A model generated the notes under the pieces. The model made no database searches. It was not told the origin of the DNA and saw only the letters and a list, made by a program, of their open reading frames with translations. DNA of 64,000 nucleotides from Candidatus Sulfomarinibacteraceae bacterium (GTDB lineage Bacteria > Acidobacteriota > Thermoanaerobaculia > Thermoanaerobaculales > Sulfomarinibacteraceae). Position 1 is the first letter of the stretch; the number at the start of each line of letters is the position of its first letter. Shown one piece after another: positions 2,895 to 50,172 of the stretch. Location of the stretch: positions 673,295-737,294 of the forward strand of contig CAVQSQ010000021.1 of the NCBI GenBank assembly GCA_963715955.1, in the 5' to 3' direction. Made by a program: the position numbers and the translations under genes.

Positions 2895-3958
2895 TGGACC
2901 CGCGCCGCACACCGCTGATCATCGTCGTCGGTTCCGGCGGAGTCGGCAAGACCACCCTCGCCGCCGCGATGGGGCTGCGCGCGGCACATCGAGGTGACGA
3001 CACCCTGGTGATGACCTTCGACCCGTCGCTGCGGCTCAAGGACGCTCTGGGGGTCGGCAACGAGGCCCTCGACGCCGAGACCGAAGTGGCAGCCGGTGCC
3101 GAGGGCCGGTTGTGGGCCAGCCTTCTCGATGCGCGACGGACGTTCGACCGGCTCATCGCCCGCTACGCCCCTGACGAAGCGGCACGTCAACGAATCCTCA
3201 CCAACCGTTTTTACGATCGACTGTCGGGAAATCTCGCCGGAGTGCTCGAGTACATGGCGTCGGAGAGGTTGTTCGAGGTCGCCGCGTCGGGTTCCTACTC
3301 CACCATCATCCTCGACACGCCGCCGACCCGCCAGGCCCTCGATTTTCTCGGCGCCCCGCAACGCATCGTCAGCTTTCTCGACAGCGGCGCCCTGCGCATC
3401 GCCCTCAAACCCTGGTTCGGCGCCGACGGCTCGCTCAAGGTGACCTCACGGCTGGGGATTCTCGGCCGCAACGTCGAGAGTTTCTTCGACCGCATGGTGG
3501 GGCTGGAGCTCCTGCGCGACATGGCCGAGTTCTTCCAGGCCTTTGCACCGCTCTTCGACGGGTTCCGCGAACGGGCCCTCGAGGTCCAGGAGAAGCTCCG
3601 CTCGCCCGACACCCTGTTCGTCCTCGTCTCCGGGCCCGGCAGCGGGCGGGTGGCCGACACCCTGTTCTTTGCCCGTCGTCTGACCGAGGCCGGCTACCAC
3701 CTGGGACCGATCGTGGTCAACCGTGTCCACCCCGAGCTGCCGCCGGTGCGCGATACTGCCAGCAAGGGCCGCCGCCTGCTGGCGTGGCTCGGCCAACGCG
3801 ACAACCAGGGGGTTGCCGAGCTGCGGGATCTCGTGGGCGAGACCCACCCCGTGGTGGAGATCCCCCTCCTGCCCGACGAACCGACGGATCTCGGATCGTT
3901 GACTGAGCTGGGAGAGCTGTTCGAGAAACAGCTCGACGAGGCGATCACGAACGACTGA
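2891..3958 (+). CDS. ArsA/GET3-family P-loop ATPase (second of a pair)
   Basis: IVVGSGGVGKTTLAAA. It overlaps the upstream gene by ATGA. ILDTPPTRQALDFL is typical of ArsA-like ATPases. Confidence 0.75.
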   Translation: MMDPRRTPLIIVVGSGGVGKTTLAAAMGLRAAHRGDDTLVMTFDPSLRLKDALGVGNEALDAETEVAAGAEGRLWASLLDARRTFDRLIARYAPDEAARQRILTNRFYDRLSGNLAGVLEYMASERLFEVAASGSYSTIILDTPPTRQALDFLGAPQRIVSFLDSGALRIALKPWFGADGSLKVTSRLGILGRNVESFFDRMVGLELLRDMAEFFQAFAPLFDGFRERALEVQEKLRSPDTLFVLVSGPGSGRVADTLFFARRLTEAGYHLGPIVVNRVHPELPPVRDTASKGRRLLAWLGQRDNQGVAELRDLVGETHPVVEIPLLPDEPTDLGSLTELGELFEKQLDEAITND

Positions 3959-4188
3959 TGCAGGATCCAGGATGACAATGAAAGTCGTAGGCGGGTCGTT
4001 CACGGCCCGCCCGCGAGAAGCTGAAATCGGCGTCGGTGGTGGCAGGCCCTGAAGGACCTGCCTACGTCTTTCAGATACTCCCAGGGTTCACCACGAACTT
4101 GGCACGCGAGACGCGTACCCCACAAGGAGACCGATCCCGGAAATCTTGTGGGCCTGCATCCTGACCCCTGCATCCTGCATCCTGCATC
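3957..4188. repeat. Foldback-type composite. The left heptamer array (GATGCAG GATCCAG GATGACA, 3957-3984) and an inverted right array (CTGCATC x5, 4153-4188) flank about 170 bp of hairpins.
   Basis: Read directly from the sequence. The left array starts inside the arsA-like stop codon. The inner hairpins are GGCAGG..CCTGCC and CCCACAAG..CTTGTGGG. Confidence 0.8.
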
Positions 4189-9504: not shown

Positions 9505-12500
9505 ATGATCCGTCGATTCGCCCTTGTGGTTGTTGTTTCGCTCACCATCTGTACCGCAGCATTCGCCGTGGAGGCCCCGCTGCCCCGCCACCCGTCGCCG
9601 TCGCCCGACGGCACGCAGATCGCATTCTCGTGGCAAGGAGACCTGTGGGTGGTCCCGGCCGCCGGCGGCGACGCCAGACGACTCACCGCCAACCCCGCCA
9701 CCGAGCGCTTCCCGGTGTGGTCGCGGGACGGCCGGTTCATCGCCTTCGCCTCCAACCGCTATGGCAACGACGACGTGTTCGTGATGCCGGTCGACGCCAG
9801 CGCCGCGCCGACCCGTCTGACATTCGCCTCGACCTCGGATGTGCCGGACGACTTCACCCCGACTGTCGATGCCGTCCTGTTCACCAGCAACCGCGCAGAG
9901 AGCGTCAAATGGGGCACCCAGCTGTGGACCGTGCCCCTGAATGGCGGCACCCCGGCACTGGCCCAGGATGCCTTCGGCGAAGCCGCCTCCTACTCGCCCG
10001 ACGGCGAGCAACTGGCCTTCGTCCGCGGCCAGACCAAGTGGACGCGACGCGGCTACCGCGGGCCGGCGAGCCGCGACATCTGGCTGCGGACCGGCGGTGA
10101 TTACACGAGGCTGACGGACTTTGACGGCACCGACGACCGGCCGACCTGGCTCGACGATCAGAACATCATCTTCCTGTCGTCCCGCGACGGCCGCAAGAAC
10201 GTCTACCGGCTCGACGTCGCGACCAGGACCGCGACCCAACTGACCTTTCAGGAGGGCTCGGCAGTGCGCTTCCCGCGCGCCGCCGCCGACGGCAGCGTCA
10301 TCGCCTACGAGTTCGAGGACGGCATCTGGACGGTGCCGCCTGCGGGCGGCCCCTCGACCCGCCTCTCGATCCAGGTCGCGGCGGATCAGGTCAACAATCC
10401 GGTCGAGCGCCGCACCGCCACCGACGGTGCCGACGAGATCGCCATCAGTCCGGACGGCAAACTCGCAGCGTTCATCGTTCACGGCGACGTCTTCGTGACC
10501 GCAATCGTCGACAAGGACGACCTGGAGATCGCGAAACCGCCGACGGCGCGGGTCACCACGACTCCCGAACGCGAACGCGACCTGAGCTGGTCGCCGGATG
10601 GGAAGACCCTGCTCTTCTCGTCCGCGGCCAACGGCAACGATGATCTCTACACCGCGGTCCCCTCCCCGAATGACACGCAATGGCCCGAGGCCTTCAACTT
10701 CCAGCTGACCCCGATCACCGCGACGCCCGCCGAGGAGTACGCCGCGGCATTCTCGCCCGACGGCGACCGCATCGCCTTCATCCGCGGCCGGGGCCAACTT
10801 GTCGTCCAACCGAAGGACGGCGGGGCGGAGACCGTGCTTCTCGACCACTGGGCGGCGCCCGACTACGCCTGGTCGCCCGACGGTGCCTGGATCGCCTACT
10901 CGACACCCGACGTGCACTACAACTCGGAGGTCTGGGTCGTTGCGTCCGCGGGCGGAGAAGCCTACAACGTCAGCCGCCACCCCGACGATGATCTCGCGCC
11001 GCGGTGGTCGCCGGACGGCCGCCGCCTGGTGTGGACCGCGAAACGCGCCGACAACACCTTCGATCTCTGGGGCGTCTGGCTGACTCGAGAGGACGACGAA
11101 CGCACCCCCGCCCAGTGGCTCAAGCTGTGGGCCGACAAGGGTGGCGACAAGAAGAAGGGCAAGGACAAGGAGGAGGACGACGACGCCTCTGACGACGACG
11201 ACGAGAAGAAGGCCGAGCTGCCCGCCGTGTCCATCGATTTCGAGCGGTTGTGGGAACGGGTCCACCGGATCACCGAACTCAAAGGCGACGAGGGCGCGGC
11301 CCGCATCAGTCCCGACGGCAAGACGATCATCTTCACCGCCGAGTTCGAGGGCGAGGAAGACCTCTACAGCGTGCGCTGGGACGGCGGCGATCTCAAGCGC
11401 CTGACCAAGGACGGAACGGAGCCCGGGCAGTTCGTCTTCGACCGCAAGGGCAAGACCATTTTCTACCTCGACGGCAAGGGCCACATCAAACGGGTCGCTC
11501 TCGACGGCAAACCCGGAGATCCGATCCCCTTCAAGGCGCGCTACGTGGTCGATGTCCGCCTCGAAAGGGCGGTGGTGTTCGACGAGGCGTGGCGCGCACT
11601 CAACGAAAACTTCTACGACCCCGACTTCCACGGCGTCGACTGGCCCGCGCAGCAGGTGAAGTACCGCCCGTGGGCGCTTCAAGCCTCGACCAGGGAGGAC
11701 TTCGCGGACATCGTGAATCTGATGCTCGGCGAGCTCAACGCCTCCCACATGGGCTACTACCCGCCCGGGACCCGCGGGAGACCGACCGCTTCCGGCGACA
11801 CGCACCGGTTGGATCGGCGTCACCTATGACCCGGCTGCCGGCGGGCCTGGATTACTGATCAAAGAGGTTCTGCCCGACTCGCCGGCATGGCGGGCGGACG
11901 CCGCGATCCAGCCGGGCGAACGCCTGGTGGCGGTGAAAGGGCTCGAGATCGGGGACACCACCAATGTCTTCGATCTGTTTGTCGACACGGTCGGCGAACG
12001 CACCCCCCTGACCGTTCGCGGCGTCGACGGCAACGACCGCACGGTGGTGGTGGAACCGGTCGGCAGCCAGCGCGGGCTGCGTTACGACGAGTGGGTGCGC
12101 CAGCGCCGTGCCCTCACCGACCAGTGGTCGGGCGGGCGCCTGGGATATATCCACATCCAGGGCATGGACATCCCGTCGTTCGAAGAGTTCGAGCGCATGC
12201 TGTTTGCTGCGGCGGACGGCAAGGAAGGGCTGCTGGTCGATGTGCGATCCAATGGCGGCGGCTGGACGACGGATTATCTGATGGCCGTGCTGATGGTGCA
12301 GCGTCACGCCTTCACGGTGCCGCGCGGCGGTGACTCCTCCGTCAAGGCATACCCGCAGAGCAGGTTGCCGCTGTCCGCCTGGACGCGGCCGGCTGTCGCG
12401 ATCTGCAACGAGGACTCCTACTCCAATGCCGAGATCTTCTCGCACGCCTTCAAGTCCCTCGGGCGGGGGCCGCTGGTCGGCTCGCCCACCTTCGGGGCCG

Positions 12501-12736: not shown

Positions 12737-12810
12737 GAACATCGCAACGTTGACGTTGAACGTTGGAAAGTTGTCCATCGACCGGCGGGGTCGAAACACG
12801 GCAGCCGGGA

Positions 12811-13011
12811 CGGCTGCCCCACAAAGGCCTCACCGCAGGACTGAAGCCGAGCGGATTGTGGTGCGGCCGTCCCGGCTGCACCTCGGATGCGCCCGTACCC
12901 GGAAACCGGCACGGCTGCCCACAAAGGCCTCACCGCAGGACTGAAGCCGAGCGGATTGTGGTGCGGCCGTCCCGGCTGCACCTCGGATGCGCCCGTACCC
13001 GGAAACCGGTA
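12811..13011 (+). repeat. Tandem direct duplication, 2 x about 101 bp (identical except for one 1-nt indel and one substitution that I can see). Each unit contains CCACAA..TTGTGG and GTGCGGCCG-TCC-CGGCTGCAC hairpins.
   Basis: Units 12811-12911 and 12912-13011 aligned by eye. Confidence 0.9.
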
Positions 13012-13035
13012 CGGAATGACGACGTAGAATCAAGC

Positions 13036-22263: not shown

Positions 22264-22298
22264 TGTGCATCCTGAATCCTGAATCCTGAATCCTGTAT
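22264..22298 (+). repeat. Heptamer tandem array (CTGAATC)n, 5 units
   Basis: GTGCATC CTGAATC CTGAATC CTGAATC CTGTATC, followed by a GCCGCCC-GACTA-GGGCGGC hairpin that spans the stop of the 22311 gene. Confidence 0.9.
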
Positions 22299-22310
22299 CG
22301 AGCCGCCCGA

Positions 22311-25962: not shown

Positions 25963-26143
25963 ATTCATTTCGGATTTCGGATTCCGAATTTCGGATTTTT
26001 CGAACCCGCGGCTTCAGTCCCATATCGCCAATTCAGCACGGCGAACGAACGACACGTGTCTTCGGCGATAGCGTCCATCCACGGTTTGCTCCGGGGTCGG
26101 TGCGATGGAAAATTCGAAATCCGAAATTCGAAATCCGAAATTC
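25963..26143. repeat. Foldback-type composite. The (TCGGATT)n array at 25963-26004 and an inverted (AATCCGA/AATTCGA)n array at 26107-26143 flank about 100 bp.
   Basis: Read directly. It lies between convergent ackA and the pgsA-like gene, and the latter's reading frame runs through the right array. Confidence 0.85.
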
Positions 26144-31128: not shown

Positions 31129-31195
31129 GCAGGATTCAGGATTCAGGATTCAGGATTCCAGCTTCCTGCGACCTGCATCCTGATACCTGCATCCT
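31129..31195. repeat. Back-to-back inverted heptamer arrays: (CAGGATT)x4, then (CCTGCAT/CCTGATA)x4
   Basis: GCAGGATTCAGGATTCAGGATTCAGGATTCC..CCTGCGACCTGCATCCTGATACCTGCATCCT. Together they form an imperfect long hairpin. Confidence 0.8.
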
Positions 31196-39930: not shown

Positions 39931-39965
39931 GAGCTGTTAGCTGTCAGCTTTTAGCTGTCAGCTTC
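39931..39965 (+). repeat. Heptamer tandem array (AGCTGTC)n, 5 units, starting 2 nt after the sucD stop
   Basis: AGCTGTT AGCTGTC AGCTTTT AGCTGTC AGCTTCA. Confidence 0.9.
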
Positions 39966-39998
39966 AAACGCCTCCGGGAAACCGGGGGCGTTTCTTTG
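39966..39998 (+). terminator. Probable sucCD terminator
   Basis: AAACGCCTCCGG-GAAA-CCGGGGGCGTTT followed by a T-rich tail (TTTCTTTG). Confidence 0.65.
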
Positions 39999-40208: not shown

Positions 40209-40235
40209 TTGACTTCGGAAAAATCCCTATATAAT
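40209..40235 (+). promoter_or_regulatory. Sigma-70-like promoter of an orphan short transcription unit
   Basis: TTGACT (40209-40214), a 15-nt spacer, then TATAAT (40230-40235). The spacer is shorter than the 17-nt optimum. Confidence 0.45.
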
Positions 40236-40241
40236 TCCGAC

Positions 40242-40302
40242 TTCGTAGTGAGGGAGGAGGAGTTTCTCTCTACGAGAGCCCGGCGGTTTCGCCGGGTTTT
40301 TT
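40242..40302 (+). ncRNA. Candidate small RNA of about 60 nt. A hairpin displays GGAGGAG in its loop and is followed by an intrinsic terminator.
   Basis: It sits between convergent sucD and addA. The stem is UUCGUAG/CUACGAG with an inner GAGGGA/UUUCUC helix and a GGAGGAG loop. Then comes CCCGGCG-GUUU-CGCCGGG plus UUUUUU (40279-40302). No ORF follows on this strand. Confidence 0.35.
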
Positions 40303-40466
40303 CATTCGCCCGGGCGGTGCCCGGGCGAATGAAAAAACAGGTGGGGGCACTCACGGGCAATGCGGCCGAGAGCATCGGGATGTTCACCTCGGCCCTCCGC
40401 TCGTGAACGCTCGAGTCGACCGACGGGCCTCTTGTGGTGCGGGCGTCCCGCCTGCACCGCGGCTGC

Positions 40467-47000: not shown

Positions 47001-47260
47001 CCGGCTCTCGTCAGAATCTCGAGAGCAAAACCGAACAGAGTCTGCACCTGAACCCCGGCGACCGCGCCCCACCGCCGGGCGAGGGTGTGCAGCAGGTGCC
47101 GGCGCAAACTCTTCGAAGGCACCACGATCCGGATCGGGAGACCGAGTGCCTCGAGATCCAACGCGCGATTTTCCTCGATCACCTCGAGCAGACGACGCTC
47201 GGCTGCCCGCGCGCCGCGGCAGATGACGACCCGGGATCCGGTGGGGAGTGCTTCACGCAT
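44036..47260 (-). CDS. addB: AddB-like helicase-nuclease subunit (inactive helicase fold + PD-(D/E)XK nuclease with Fe-S cysteines)
   Basis: The ATG at 47260 (MREALPTGSRVVICRG...) follows GGAGGA. The C-terminus carries ITLIDYKAS (nuclease) and Cys residues at GTGTCPW plus CLYCAVAEAC, the 1+3 Cys pattern of the AddB Fe-S staple. The upstream 215 codons of track ORF 44036..47905 cross the divergent gene and repeats. Confidence 0.75.
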   Translation of the reverse strand: MREALPTGSRVVICRGARAAERRLLEVIEENRALDLEALGLPIRIVVPSKSLRRHLLHTLARRWGAVAGVQVQTLFGFALEILTRAGRSVPPGDAVFELVVRRLAAADPALNASLGDLRDGYDPVVGAVRDLLDAGFEPGNLEAVFESLDDVARDLAPGRVERTRAVVRLAAVVCELGEDPGPARSMQALQWAGESLVQHGPLAAPTRHLLVHGFADVTGVAADLLAAVVRVFNSTVILDRPPDPANQETDDLGGVYLSRLEERLTHLDREVDPRLEPPPRLELVEAPDREAEARWVAEELRRLLDGGVTPEEIGVVGRTLDGLVLPLRRHLRRLGVPFSGIGAGVPGASPRTPILRFLELLRQGPSCGADLWMEASTVEGGTTELLLGLRVLGVLRLSDLAELQPGAVPASGVRLPVDLGPDEDGEEPGTPRRLSAGVVREAVARAGRVVSALDLRPEKGSAPVHRRHTLVLLDALGWGEDSPGRAEVWDALEKICREVPDDLMLTAAEWQRLLGDRLQKIGEVAIGGEGAGVQVLTVMEARSRTFSHLFVMACNRGLFPRVVHEDPMLPEAVRTRLAATVLPEMPVKGRSADEERYLFAQLVASSPSVHLSWSAFGADGTMTASPFVDRLRLRTEAGEPLRASQLWSEQGGRDHPRTAYELAILAAPLADSNGLKRLLGAAVEEGRTDAATTAETVSPVAVAASRLDVLEAVERPRDAVISPWFGFTGGGRGEAGQPLWVTHAEGTGTCPWREFIEHGLGVFPMPDPQLGLPGIDGPLVGQVVHGVLDEIVDRGIADPERVGTARLDELAAGRLVTVVWPDEAVFEELLTEIAARVAERAGLGPVGMAPLLAARARGYLEVERELEWTGGALSGVLGSEVEGAAEVPGVDRRLSFRADRVGGLGGAITLIDYKASRPVSEAKKEVTRRKHLETSIARGRRLQAVAYASAAGVESARGAYLFLKPNDEWSDEVRILALGGDDEAAVGLFINAVQTIERARTAGVAFPRLEEADGKAAGHCLYCAVAEACRRDDSAFRRELVRWMRSSDDSCDTAADAARDLWWLGFERPEVDG

Positions 47261-47353
47261 CGCGGTTCCTCCATGGGACCACGGGCCTCCCGGCCTGTCA
47301 ACGCCGCCCCCGGCGGTGGCGTAGAATGTCGGGAGCCGATACGGGGAGGCCGC

Positions 47354-47824
47354 ATGCCGGGAGTGGAACAGACCGTCATCGAGAGGTGGAACCGCGCGAA
47401 GGGCTCGGCTTTCGGCCGCTGGCTCTTCAGCCGGGCGGTGGGCCGGTTCGCGCCCTACACGGGCACCATCGGCGCCCGCATCGAGGAGTTCGAACCGGGT
47501 CGATCCGTGGTCACGATGCGCGACCGCAAAAAGGTCCGCAACCACCTGAGATCGGTGCACGCCGTGGCCCTGACCAATCTGATCGAGCTCTCCGGAAGTC
47601 TCGCGATCATCGCCTCGATGCATCCGGACACACGGATGATTCCGGTGCGGCTCGAGTCGGAGTTCGTGAAGAAGGCGCGCGGCACGGTGACGGCCGAGGG
47701 CAGCTGCGACACCATCGAGCCGGGGTTCGAGGGAGAGGTTCAGGCGGGGGTGGTGGTTCGCGACAGTGGCGGCAACGAGGTCACGCGAGGGCGGGTGACG
47801 GTGGTGATCGGCGCGACGGGGTGA
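47354..47824 (+). CDS. Hotdog-fold thioesterase-like protein (DUF4442/PaaI-like)
   Basis: The ATG at 47354 follows GGGGAGG. About 156 aa, with ...VHAVALTNLIELSG...ESEFVKKARGTVTAEG..., typical of DUF4442-type hotdog proteins as I remember them. Confidence 0.6.
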   Translation: MPGVEQTVIERWNRAKGSAFGRWLFSRAVGRFAPYTGTIGARIEEFEPGRSVVTMRDRKKVRNHLRSVHAVALTNLIELSGSLAIIASMHPDTRMIPVRLESEFVKKARGTVTAEGSCDTIEPGFEGEVQAGVVVRDSGGNEVTRGRVTVVIGATG

Positions 47825-47839: not shown

Positions 47840-48043
47840 AATTCTGAATTTTGAATTTTGAATTTTGAATTTCTGCCCGAATGGCAGCCGGGACGGCTGC
47901 CCCACGATCTTTCATGATCGGTCTTTGTGGGGCAGGCGTCCCGCCTGCCAGGTAGCGGGACCCGCCGGAAGCCACCCTTCAGACCGCCGTCAGTGAGGTG
48001 GGACGAGCTCCATTCAAAATTCAAAATTAAGAATTCAAAATTA
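47840..48043. repeat. Foldback-type composite. The (TGAATTT)n array at 47840-47873 and an inverted (AAATTCA)n array at 48011-48043 flank GGCAGCCG-GGA-CGGCTGCC and GGCAGGCG-TCC-CGCCTGCC hairpins.
   Basis: Read directly. It lies between the convergent hotdog gene and sppA, and the sppA TAA stop lies inside the right array. Confidence 0.85.
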
Positions 48044-49771
48044 CTGGATGAGAATCGGCGGCATCCAGACGACGCCGGGGGTTGCGAGGGTGCCGCTGGT
48101 CAACCAGTTCTGGAGAAACTCGACCTTGGCCGCTAGGGCCACCTGGTCGGAACCGCGCTTTCTGGTCAGCTCCTGCCACCACGACATCGGCCGCGGGAAG
48201 TGCACCAGCTGGACCTCGGTGTCGGGGTCGATATCGGCAAGCCTCTTGGCCTCGGACAGCGCCACATCGAACCCGCCGAGCACATCGACGAGCCCGTTCT
48301 CGATCGCCTGGACGCCCGTGAAGACCCGGCCGCGGCCGATCGCGTCGACCGCTTCGGGCGTCATGCCGCGCGAGGCCGACACCCGCTCCACGAAATCGTC
48401 GTAGATCCGGTCCAGCATGCGATCGACGATCGCGCGCTGCTCGTCGGTCCAATTCTCGAGTTCGCCGTAGATATTGGCGTTGGTCCCCGCATCGATCCTG
48501 CCGTAGGTCACGCCGAGCTTGTCCGACCAGAATCCGGATGTATTGAGGTGGCCCGCGTAGACGCCGATGGACCCGGTCAGGGTCACCGGTTCGGCGACGA
48601 TCCGTTGCGCCCCGCAGGTGATCCAGTAGCCGCCCGACCCGGCCACGTTCGACATCGAGACGACGACCGGAACCTCGGCGGCGACCCGCACCATCTCCTG
48701 GCGGATGATCTCGGACGCGACCGCGCTGCCGCCGGGGGAATCAACGCGAAAGACAACCGCCTCGACGCCGGGCGTGTCGCCGACATCCCTGAAAGCCTTG
48801 GCCAAGGTCTCCGACCCCATGATCTCGCCGCCGAGCAACGGGTTGACGCTCTCGCCGCTCGAGCCGCGCATGATGGCGCCGACCCCGGTCACGACCGCGA
48901 TCTTCGGGCCATTGTGGACCCTTCTGCTTTGTTGGAGATAGGCTCGGACACCGACCTCTCTCGCACCGGGCTCACGTTCGTCGAGGCGCTCGTTGAATGA
49001 GGTCCAATCCTCGAGACTGTCGATCAGACCGGCCTCGACCGACTCTGCACCTATGAACGGTGCACGATTGATGAGGCTGCGAACCTCGTCCGCCGACATG
49101 CCCCGGCTGTCGCCTATGCCCAACGTCATCTGCTCCATGAGGGAATCGATCAACCACCCGGTCATCTCTTCCTGTTCGCGGGTGAATTCGGTCTCGGTGT
49201 ACATGAAGCGTGCGGTTTTGTAGTCGCCTCGTCCGGGAAACTCGGCCTGGATGTCCAATTTGTCGAAGGTCCCTCGGATGAACGGCGTCCGCGAGGAGAG
49301 ACCGATCAGGTTGAGGTCGCCCTGCGGGTTCATCGACACCTCGTCGCAGGCCGACGCGACGTAGTAGACCAGATTGCCGGGCATGAACTCACCGGCGGTG
49401 TCCATGTAGGCGGCGGTCCATTTCCCGGCGGCCCCCACCCTCGCGATCAGCGACCGCAGTTCCTGCGCGGTCGCGAATCCGCCGCCGATGCTGTCGATGC
49501 GCAACCGCAGCCCGCGAACCCGGTCGTCCTCCGCAACCCGGTTCAAAACGTCCCGCAGGTTGCTCAGGCTGGTGGCCTGGTCGCCCATCAATTCGGCGAG
49601 CGGGTCTTCGGCGGTCACCTCGGCGATCGGCCCCGCCAACCGCAGCGACACGACCATCTCTCCGGGGAGCGACGGGGCGGCAAGCCCCCGCACGAGCACC
49701 ACCATGATGATGAAACCGAGAACAACCAGCAGGCACCCGGCACCCAGGAAGACGGTCCGCGCTTTGGCCAT
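48041..49771 (-). CDS. sppA: Signal peptide peptidase SppA, 67K type (tandem S49 domains)
   Basis: N-terminal TM segment and two ClpP/S49-like halves (SIGGGFATAQEL; DSPGGSAVASE...SNVAGSGGYW). GGAGGTG Shine-Dalgarno sequence. Confidence 0.88.
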   Translation of the reverse strand: MAKARTVFLGAGCLLVVLGFIIMVVLVRGLAAPSLPGEMVVSLRLAGPIAEVTAEDPLAELMGDQATSLSNLRDVLNRVAEDDRVRGLRLRIDSIGGGFATAQELRSLIARVGAAGKWTAAYMDTAGEFMPGNLVYYVASACDEVSMNPQGDLNLIGLSSRTPFIRGTFDKLDIQAEFPGRGDYKTARFMYTETEFTREQEEMTGWLIDSLMEQMTLGIGDSRGMSADEVRSLINRAPFIGAESVEAGLIDSLEDWTSFNERLDEREPGAREVGVRAYLQQSRRVHNGPKIAVVTGVGAIMRGSSGESVNPLLGGEIMGSETLAKAFRDVGDTPGVEAVVFRVDSPGGSAVASEIIRQEMVRVAAEVPVVVSMSNVAGSGGYWITCGAQRIVAEPVTLTGSIGVYAGHLNTSGFWSDKLGVTYGRIDAGTNANIYGELENWTDEQRAIVDRMLDRIYDDFVERVSASRGMTPEAVDAIGRGRVFTGVQAIENGLVDVLGGFDVALSEAKRLADIDPDTEVQLVHFPRPMSWWQELTRKRGSDQVALAAKVEFLQNWLTSGTLATPGVVWMPPILIQ

Positions 49772-49814: not shown

Positions 49815-49848
49815 GAATTTTGAATTTTGAATTTTGAGTTTTGAATTC
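49815..49848 (+). repeat. Heptamer tandem array (GAATTTT)n, 5 units, upstream of sppA
   Basis: GAATTTT GAATTTT GAATTTT GAGTTTT GAATTC. Confidence 0.9.
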
Positions 49849-49858
49849 CATCGCAAAC

Positions 49859-50172
49859 GGCAGCCGGGTCGGCTGCCTCATCCGGCTTCGCTCCTGGGGC
49901 TTCGCCGGGACAAGCACTCATCGCCTGCTTGTGACGGCGTAGCGCTCGCGCGAAGCCGCATGGGGCAGGCGTCCCGCCTGCCGGGCGGTCAACCCTTGTG
50001 GGGCAGGCGTCCCGCCTGCCAACGTGCGGCGGAGGTGCCCGTCATCCGCTCGGACCATGCATATCTTGAATTTCGAAGGGTTGCTGTTCCATCTTGCTCT
50101 CCGACAGCGTGACTGAAGGTGGGCCAAGGCCCACCCTACTTCGGAGGTAGGGTGGGCTTCAGCCCACCTTCA
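49859..50172. repeat. Cluster of REP-like GC-rich hairpins (BIME-like mosaic)
   Basis: It contains GGCAGCCGGGTCGGCTGCC (49859-49877) and GGCAGGCGTCCCGCCTGCC twice (49964-49982, 50002-20). It also has a GTGCGGCGGAGGTGCC fragment and CTGAAGGTGGGCCAAGGCCCACCCTAC / GTAGGGTGGGCTTCAGCCCACCTTCAG (50112-50172). Confidence 0.85.

Follow-up and report, generated by a model that had tools for sequence, protein, structure and literature searches.

In a 64-kb stretch of contig CAVQSQ010000021.1 from a Candidatus Sulfomarinibacteraceae bacterium, an uncultured acidobacterium of marine sediment (the whole stretch analysed, hereafter the window), a tandem array of an AT-rich heptamer faces its own inverted copy at positions 47840–48043, between a DUF4442 gene and the signal peptide peptidase gene sppA, which raises the question of what kind of element this is and what keeps its two arms alike. 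A preliminary description of the locus had known of no bacterial repeat class built in this way. Paired heptamer arrays have nevertheless been reported before from Geobacter (PMC2700814) and Xanthomonas (PMC4692102); the window element belongs to this class, and its architecture is not new. The interpretation favoured here, which we hold with about even confidence, is that 47840–48043 is a hairpin element lacking an open reading frame (ORF) and resembling the intervening sequences (IVSs) of 23S rRNA genes, that its loop has been colonised by a REPIN, a doublet of repetitive extragenic palindromes (REPs), and that it represents a lineage-wide intergenic class. Tandem heptamers are reportedly over-represented among the long simple repeats of bacterial genomes, as noted since the 1990 reports of short tandemly repeated repetitive (STRR) sequences and in surveys of 2007, and are said to be unexplained.

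Anatomy of the Element

The tandem heptamer (GAATTTT)x4.7 at 47840–47872 is opposed by its inverted copy at 48012–48042, with a spacing of 139 bp between the arms and an arm alignment score of 47. The sequence itself and Tandem Repeats Finder (TRF) agree on the inverted arrays bracketing two GC-rich hairpins that had been described, as shown in Table 1. It had also been stated that the arrays touch stop codons, and this was borne out on both sides, with the TAA of sppA (48041–48043, minus strand) sharing bases with the last unit of the right arm, at a distance of 0 nt, and with 15 nt separating the TGA of the convergent DUF4442 gene from the start of the left arm. On the sppA sense strand, the right arm reads TAA TTTTGAA TTCTTAA TTTTGAA TTTTGAA, so that the sppA stop codon stands in the phase of the array.

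No ORF was found within the loop (47873–48011). The REP hairpins GGCAGCCGGGACGGCTGCC (47883–47901) and GGCAGGCGTCCCGCCTGCC (47931–47949) form a doublet in inverted orientation, as in known REPINs, and the heptamer arms fall outside it. The REP hairpin family has seven copies in the window against 0.06 expected. REPs without arms and arms without REPs both occur in relatives, so the heptamer arms are not parts of the REPIN. REP-type hairpins of the 47883 family were also observed at 12805–13014 of the window, where a 100-bp unit is repeated 2.1 times with 97% identity.

Abundance, Pairing and Polarity of Heptamer Arrays

The census set consisted of the window and related loci of the same family, comprising 622 kb at first and 747 kb in later counts. 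A total of 37 loci around sppA homologues were included, from metagenome-assembled genomes (MAGs) labelled Candidatus Sulfomarinibacteraceae, Thermoanaerobaculia or Acidobacteriota, the best protein identity of the relatives being 93% and none being identical, and nine loci around ackA homologues were added later. Genes were called with a simple caller, by which stops are reliable and starts approximate.

Among tandem repeats with at least three copies, those of period 7 dominate, with 101 arrays vs 32 of period 6 and 30 of period 8. The copy number of the period-7 repeats is unimodal with a mode of 4.5 units (~32 bp), while repeats of periods 5 and 6 decay from two copies. With a partner called at a Smith–Waterman score ≥28 within 400 bp, 26 of the 96 period-7 arrays in the window and the 37 loci had an inverted partner, against one in the direct, one in the reverse-only and none in the complement-only control, so that inverted pairing beyond chance, as proposed in the preliminary description, is upheld. 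The partner search yielded 17 pairs with spacers of 11–260 bp. Array pairs less than 400 bp apart matched in inverted orientation in 15 of 38 cases and in direct orientation in none of the 38; at 400–2500 bp the matches were 8/52 inverted and 2/52 direct, and beyond 2.5 kb they were 13/216 inverted and 18/216 direct (Fisher p 3e-7). The matching of units is distance-dependent and inverted, and shared unit usage within a genome is therefore not enough to account for the pairing. In total, 56 different canonical units were recognised among 119 arrays. Self-complementary units (GGAATTC type) are not a general rule, with only a modest excess (20 vs 11.3 expected) for which one unit family is responsible. 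Most paired loci have a GC-rich hairpin between their arms.

The arrays are also placed and oriented consistently. Relative to the stop of the preceding gene, 38 arrays begin at −20 to +25 nt, and the outer 5% of the intergenic gap holds 27 of 73 arrays. On the array strand leading away from the nearest ORF, G exceeds C in the ratio 36:12 beside stops and 10:4 beside starts, and in the next 20 nt beyond the arrays C exceeds G (34:14 on the stop side, 12:2 on the start side); this C-rich stretch is often a CCCNCCCNCCC tract in more distant relatives. For genome annotation, the heptamer elements are markers of true gene ends. In relative L006 (5808–6060), four consecutive direct modules were observed, each comprising a heptamer array and a CCCNCCCNCCC tract, with the units GGAATTN, GATGCTG/CTCGATA, GAATTTT and ATTTCGG; the opposite strand of the tracts is G-quadruplex (G4)-like (GGGTGGGCGGGCGGG).

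The arm units are specific to each locus, as the preliminary description had maintained in setting aside one copied miniature inverted-repeat transposable element (MITE), and the interiors are unrelated both between pairs and between metagenomic copies with the same arms. Metagenome contigs were scanned for (GAATTTT)3.7, and 80 loci among the matches listed had contig GC contents of 26–68% and median copy numbers of 4.4–4.6. In low-coverage sediment metagenome runs, whose short contigs hold parts of the window, the depth of the GAATTTT array was ~70x that of its flanks, and further GAATTTT foldbacks in the sediment runs have unrelated interiors of 30–39 nt. The recurrence of arms with differing interiors argues against a MITE.

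Persistence and Joint Change at Orthologous Gaps

The sppA stop codon is the starting point of a period-7 array in the window, and likewise in 12 of 17 inspected relatives; a second array lies just upstream of the TGCTACCAT/TACGAT motif and the GGAGGTG Shine–Dalgarno sequence of sppA in the window and ten relatives. The units at sppA differ among relatives (TTTTGAA, TTTTGAG, ATTTCGG, GGAATTC, TTCTCAA, GGGACCT and others), and the arrays at the sppA stop, the sppA promoter and the sucD stop are still present at protein identities as low as 70%. In L010, L011, L012, L014 and L015, sppA is followed by a compact foldback. In six orthologues the type of the sppA stop codon tracks the unit, TAA occurring with TTNTNAA and TAG with TTNTNAG, and homogenisation therefore extends as far as selection allows. 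As a syntenic housekeeping gene, sppA is furthermore bracketed on both sides by matching inverted arrays (48012 and 49815, score 47, 1.8 kb apart), and arrays bracketing it at this distance as inverted copies were found in five species with five different units, including the window, L001, L003, L032 and L034. A comparison of the window with L001 gave no clean boundaries of an empty and a filled site, the gap in L001 being remodelled, with the REPIN in the opposite orientation and a different hairpin element of 115 nt. The distance from the MBL-fold (metallo-beta-lactamase fold) gene to sppA in L001 (6717–9898) is ~3.2 kb vs 150 bp in the window (49874–50023).

Between ackA and the CDP-alcohol-transferase gene, the inverted pairs are built from ATTTCGG in the window, GATGCTG/CAGCATC in L158, GATGCTC/GAGTATC in L165 and TTCTCAA/TTGAGAA in L160, while an inverted pair is absent from this gap in L161, L162 and L164. 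L158 and L165 differ at one unit position, G:C vs C:G, which is a compensated double change across both arrays. In L165 (1322–1445) and L166, from two independent metagenome assemblies, the left ackA arm has ~17 perfect CTCGATG units and the right arm five. The ackA gap of L159 (11280–11590) contains inverted arms built from GCGCAGAT-type units at a period of ~9–10, which are not heptamers. Five loci (the window, L005, L009, L010 and L012) have an AGCTNTN array after the sucD stop, and of these L005, L009 and L010 also have an inverted partner; the arms in L005 bracket an intrinsic terminator, the partner lying beyond it, and L003 and L004 have neither array nor terminator.

The elements accordingly persist at orthologous gaps while the units of both arms change jointly, which indicates that something maintains their complementarity. 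The concerted evolution of the two arms fits the structure- or process-driven origin that had been suggested for the locus. A process at the DNA level, acting on the folded hairpin or on neighbouring arrays, would keep the arms alike, and slippage within the arms combined with inverted templated copying or gene conversion between them is a candidate for this process.

PF05635 Genes between Heptamer Arrays

An ORF-bearing version of the element occupies the sppA 3′ gap of L027, a Sulfomarinibacter MAG, where a truncated gene for a 23S rRNA intervening-sequence protein (PF05635, E 3e-25) lies between GGGCGTGA-type arrays and inverted CCCTCAAG arrays that adjoin the convergent gene. The PF05635 gene (11816–12070) ends at position 79 of the 106 positions of the profile and is probably decaying, and its truncation parallels the reductive evolution reported for the S23p ORF of Coxiella. 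The IVS of Coxiella burnetii has a 28-bp terminal stem, cut by ribonuclease III (RNase III), with three to four tandem copies of GACAGAT that vary in number among strains, and carries an S23p ORF (Warrier et al. 2016, PMC4990558). The S23p protein is reported as a homopentamer in work cited there.

The same association appeared in metagenome loci chosen solely for a GAATTTT array, with PF05635 genes lying between inverted GAATTTT arrays in L063 and L077, a PF05635 gene flanked by CCTAATT arrays in L102, and a GAATTTT array downstream of a PF05635 gene in L136, where a mere remnant is left upstream. In L028 (15350–16010), an acidobacterial MAG, a PF05635 gene is flanked by GC-rich repeats of period ~6 (GGGACC/GCGACC) that are apparently direct. 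A PF05635 gene within the arms at an orthologous gap ties the intergenic arrays to the 23S rRNA IVS, and RNase III cleavage or binding of S23p are candidate functions.

Predicted Folding and Possible Mode of Action

The predicted fold pairs both arrays on either RNA strand into a ~30-bp stem, with energies of −95 and −104 kcal/mol and z-scores of −6.0 and −6.4, and none of 200 shuffles was as stable. A scan for a canonical intrinsic terminator between the convergent DUF4442 gene and sppA gave only chance-level matches, and a bidirectional intrinsic terminator was rejected because the GC hairpins have the T-rich arm before them and the A-rich arm behind, which is the wrong order for an A-tract and a U-tract. 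A simple sequence repeat serving phase variation (a contingency locus) was likewise rejected, as the arms follow two stop codons and do not lie in a coding region or a promoter spacer. The idea that a stop triplet in the 7-nt unit closes all three frames after a gene gained no support, with no asymmetry between sense and antisense. In Rfam, neither a match at the gathering threshold nor an rRNA was found for the window, and only chance-level hairpin matches to the REPIN were returned.

Under the favoured interpretation of an IVS-like hairpin, either convergent gene would transcribe the element, and the transcript would fold into an AU-rich stem of ~30 bp closing a GC-rich loop. The stem would form the 3′-end structure of both mRNAs, and it would most likely serve as a substrate of RNase III, as a barrier to exonucleases or as both, in the manner of IVS excision. 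The long RNA stem probably acts at the 3′ ends of both convergent mRNAs. What is demonstrated comprises the architecture, the statistics, the behaviour at orthologous gaps and the PF05635 association; RNA folding in vivo, RNase III cleavage and the homogenising process are inferred.

A number of observations weigh against this interpretation. No partner was detected for about two-thirds of the arrays, and in L001, L003, L004 and L005, which are the closest relatives, the sppA-side arm is present but the DUF4442-side arm is absent, so the 47840 arm is recent or dispensable. As the REPIN is off-centre in the loop, the element as a whole does not form a single continuous palindrome. Support for selection on an RNA stem is weak, since the arms are only ~86% complementary and the pooled arm mismatches, 29 transitions vs 35 transversions, show neither an excess nor a strand bias of G:U-compatible changes and so no RNA-specific signal; L165 departs from this locally, one G:U occurring in each unit on the ackA-sense strand. 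Among the metagenome matches listed, inverted partners occur on either side of the GAATTTT arrays, that is, in both arm topologies. No PF05635 homologue was found in the 64-kb window by tblastn with the L077 protein. Finally, among RNA sequencing runs none was found to contain the stretch.

A far-reaching extension of the IVS-like interpretation is offered as a long shot, quite unlikely in our own estimate. Heptamer arrays of many phyla (STRR, GGGAATC, MTYCTGA and those of the window) might be a single system, all of them being arms of IVS-like hairpin elements, in which about five units would dock a pentameric PF05635/S23p (Avd-like) toroid, one unit per subunit. The toroid, perhaps with a host polymerase or a reverse transcriptase, would copy or homogenise the arms in inverted orientation at ORF boundaries, and copies without an ORF would be non-autonomous riders, used by the cell as 3′-end structures cut by RNase III.

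Alternative Explanations

The IVS-like hairpin has two live rivals, the binding of a protein to phased units and an origin that is purely neutral, each of them rather doubtful in our judgement. In the former, the arrays would be phased binding sites on DNA or single-stranded RNA, each 7-nt unit taking one subunit, and the inverted pairing would reflect two-fold symmetric or looped binding and not a nucleic-acid hairpin; a global regulator or nucleoid protein (as for Geobacter), a cold-shock-type protein of the oligonucleotide-binding (OB) fold and the pentameric PF05635/S23p toroid are candidates. The strict period and the narrow length of ~4.5 units whatever the sequence speak for such sites, together with the PF05635 genes adjoining arrays and a limited unit vocabulary across phyla, since MTYCTGA of Geobacter recurs at 22269 and 31130 of the window and GAATTTT occurs over the whole GC range given above among the matches listed. 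The homopentameric state of S23p (as cited in PMC4990558) points the same way, as does the binding of one CspB protein per heptamer that is reported in work cited in PMC4679880. However, the number of canonical units is too large for one sequence-specific protein, units are wholly replaced at orthologous sites of close relatives, and the match between neighbouring units is specifically inverted and local, which a binding-site model does not require. If the arrays were instead functionless by-products of DNA metabolism, heptamer slippage, promoted by the polymerase footprint, would create arrays where alone the DNA can vary freely, GC-rich hairpins (REPs, terminators) would cause template switching that copies an array inverted to the other side, and purifying selection on ORFs would explain why arrays end exactly at stop codons. 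Such an origin accounts for the fast gain and loss of arrays between relatives, the expanded arm of L165, the homogenisation into the stop codon in the six sppA orthologues, the hairpin between the arms at most loci and the lack of a wobble signature in the arm mismatches. It is countered by the unimodal copy number, where decay would be expected, by the persistence of arrays at the sppA and sucD stops and the sppA promoter, by the consistent strand polarity with its flanking C-rich tract, and by the association with PF05635, which neutral slippage leaves unexplained.

A foldback-type transposon or MITE, with terminal inverted repeats built from subrepeats and a transposase encoded elsewhere, is unlikely, and we give it very little credence. 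The inverted termini made of tandem subunits, as in FB transposons, the presence/absence polymorphism between relatives and the ORF-bearing and ORF-less versions, which resemble an autonomous/non-autonomous pair, would suit it. The likeness to eukaryotic FB transposons drawn in the preliminary description nevertheless proved superficial, as the arms measure 32 bp and not hundreds to thousands of bp, the unit is specific to each locus, and no copies share both arms and interior. No target-site duplication was seen on reading the flanks (GCCTC/AATTC... and ...AAAATTA/CTGGAT), no transposase turned up in a scan that covered only the genes adjoining arrays, and the sole associated ORF, PF05635, encodes a four-helix-bundle protein without known nuclease or transposase activity. 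Least probable of all is a G4 or i-motif element of the kind proposed for the GGGAATC arrays of Xanthomonas. These arrays do follow the same positional rules and four-unit preference (PMC4692102), and CCCNCCCNCCC tracts follow arrays in some relatives, but GAATTTT, ATTTCGG and most other units have no G-runs and yet show the same length mode and pairing, and by reading the sequence no C- or G-tract was found beside the arms at 47840–48043. As the same rules hold in units without G-runs, G4 formation cannot explain in general why four to five units are preferred.

Other Heptamer Arrays in the Window

About 13 period-7 arrays were detected by TRF in the window, some of them solitary (17230, 18877, 22269, 37745 and 39932) and some upstream of genes. 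The claim that the same architecture occurs elsewhere in the window holds fully for the 25967/26110 pair, which lies between the convergent ackA and CDP-alcohol phosphatidyltransferase genes (arms 25967–25998 and 26110–26141) and is as clear as the 47840 pair. It holds less well for the 3957/4153 pair (arms 3957–3974 and 4153–4188), whose left arm has just ~2.5 units and overlaps the stop of the ArsA-like gene, the right arm standing just upstream of the DUF1684 gene. The proposed association with convergent gene ends is not exclusive, since the 3957/4153 pair, between the co-oriented ArsA-like and DUF1684 genes, and the 31130 pair both lie between co-oriented genes and other arrays lie upstream of promoters. 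A REP hairpin follows the array at 49815, just as at 47840.

Downstream of sucD, a candidate small RNA was observed at 40209–40336, where a promoter-like TTGACT...TATAAT precedes a hairpin with exposed GGAGGAGGAG and a strong intrinsic terminator. It is kept downstream of sucD in L001, L003, L004 and L005 despite differing flanking repeats, and a search of Rfam gave no match for it at the gathering threshold.

Table 1. Coordinates of the element at 47840–48043, its flanking genes and further heptamer arrays of the window.
Feature	Position	Strand	Description
Left arm	47840–47872	+	AATTCTG AATTTTG AATTTTG AATTTTG AATTT; TRF period 7, 4.7 copies, 96% matches
Right arm	48012–48042	−	ATTCAAA ATTCAAA ATTAAGA ATTCAAA ATT; TRF period 7, 4.4 copies, 83% matches
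DUF4442 (thioesterase-fold) gene	47087–47824	+	TGA stop 47822–47824; Pfam PF14539, E 2e-32; from the ORF list
sppA (signal peptide peptidase, S49, Peptidase_S49)	48041–49771	−	Pfam PF01343, E 2e-63
REPIN in loop	47883–47949		REP hairpin GGCAGCCGGGACGGCTGCC, CCACGA, spacer, TTTGTGG, REP hairpin GGCAGGCGTCCCGCCTGCC
GC-rich spacer	47950–48011		62 nt, small local hairpin; not common to relatives
Second foldback	25967–26141		(ATTTCGG)x4.6, 111 bp, (AAATCCG/AAATTCG)x4.6
Third, weaker foldback	3957–4188		GATGCAG GATCCAG GATG at ArsA-like stop; 178 bp; (CCTGCAT)x5.1
Near-zero-spacer foldback	31130–31195		(CAGGATT)x4 / (CCTGCAT-like)x4; between intrinsic terminator and next gene
Solitary arm (AGCTGTY)x4.6	39932–39990	+	2 nt past sucD stop, then intrinsic terminator
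Third (GAATTTT)x4.7 array	49815–49847	+	~16 nt upstream of conserved sppA TGCTACCAT (−10-like) motif

Comparison with Known Repeat Systems

The arrays share with the STRR sequences of heterocystous cyanobacteria and the TAACTGA repeats of Beggiatoaceae the tandem heptamers of two to six units, the intergenic position, the polarity towards genes and the patchy occurrence across phyla. Unlike the window arrays, STRR and TAACTGA repeats draw on one or a few units in each genome and are found mainly ahead of start codons; inversion is very rare among them, with one of 170 sets of TAACTGA repeats inverted in a Beggiatoa genome (MacGregor 2015, PMC4679880). In Geobacter metallireducens, pairs of sites on opposite strands (classes 2 and 3) consist of five MTYCTGA heptamers (class 3) or three TCTCCGTS units at variable distance (Aklujkar et al. 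2009, PMC2700814); the authors took the paired repeats for binding sites of unidentified global regulators, and the paper has no analysis of orthologs or polarity. The MTYCTGA of Geobacter is the unit of the window arrays at 22269–22299 and 31130–31158, and TCTCCGT-like units occur in L027.

In Xanthomonas, with paired arrays in X. campestris and X. axonopodis, the GGGAATC arrays number 186, most often comprise four units and lie within 50 bp of ORF ends, and 70–75 convergent inverted pairs per genome are able to form stem-loops or cruciforms, the function being described as not known and G4 formation being proposed (Rehm et al. 2015, PMC4692102). The same study described GGGGAYT heptamer arrays in Nostoc and the rule, for Xanthomonas and Nostoc, that the 5′ side of the array adjoins the ORF regardless of ORF orientation. 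The arrays reported here agree with those of Xanthomonas in the period of 7, the mode of about four units, the inverted pairs, the position at ORF ends and the polarity, as well as in length and sequence that vary among close relatives at conserved positions. They differ from those of Xanthomonas and Nostoc in having dozens of mostly AT-rich units with no G4 potential, GAATTTT containing a single G, so that the rules of the Xanthomonas arrays extend to AT-rich units without quadruplex capacity. They further differ from Xanthomonas in their host (Acidobacteriota/Thermoanaerobaculia) and in a loop where REP/REPIN hairpins or a terminator are often found.

The Coxiella IVS lies in helix 25/45 of the rRNA, whereas the window element is intergenic among protein-coding genes and has no ORF in its loop, the PF05635 ORF being present at the orthologous gap of L027. 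Both have complementary termini whose stem, ~28 bp in the IVS and predicted at ~30 bp here, contains heptamer repeats. The class as a whole, with arms of ~32 bp made of ~4.5 heptamers and abutting ORFs, shares its design with the 23S rRNA IVS that bears an ORF, with its ~28-bp stem and PF05635/S23p gene.

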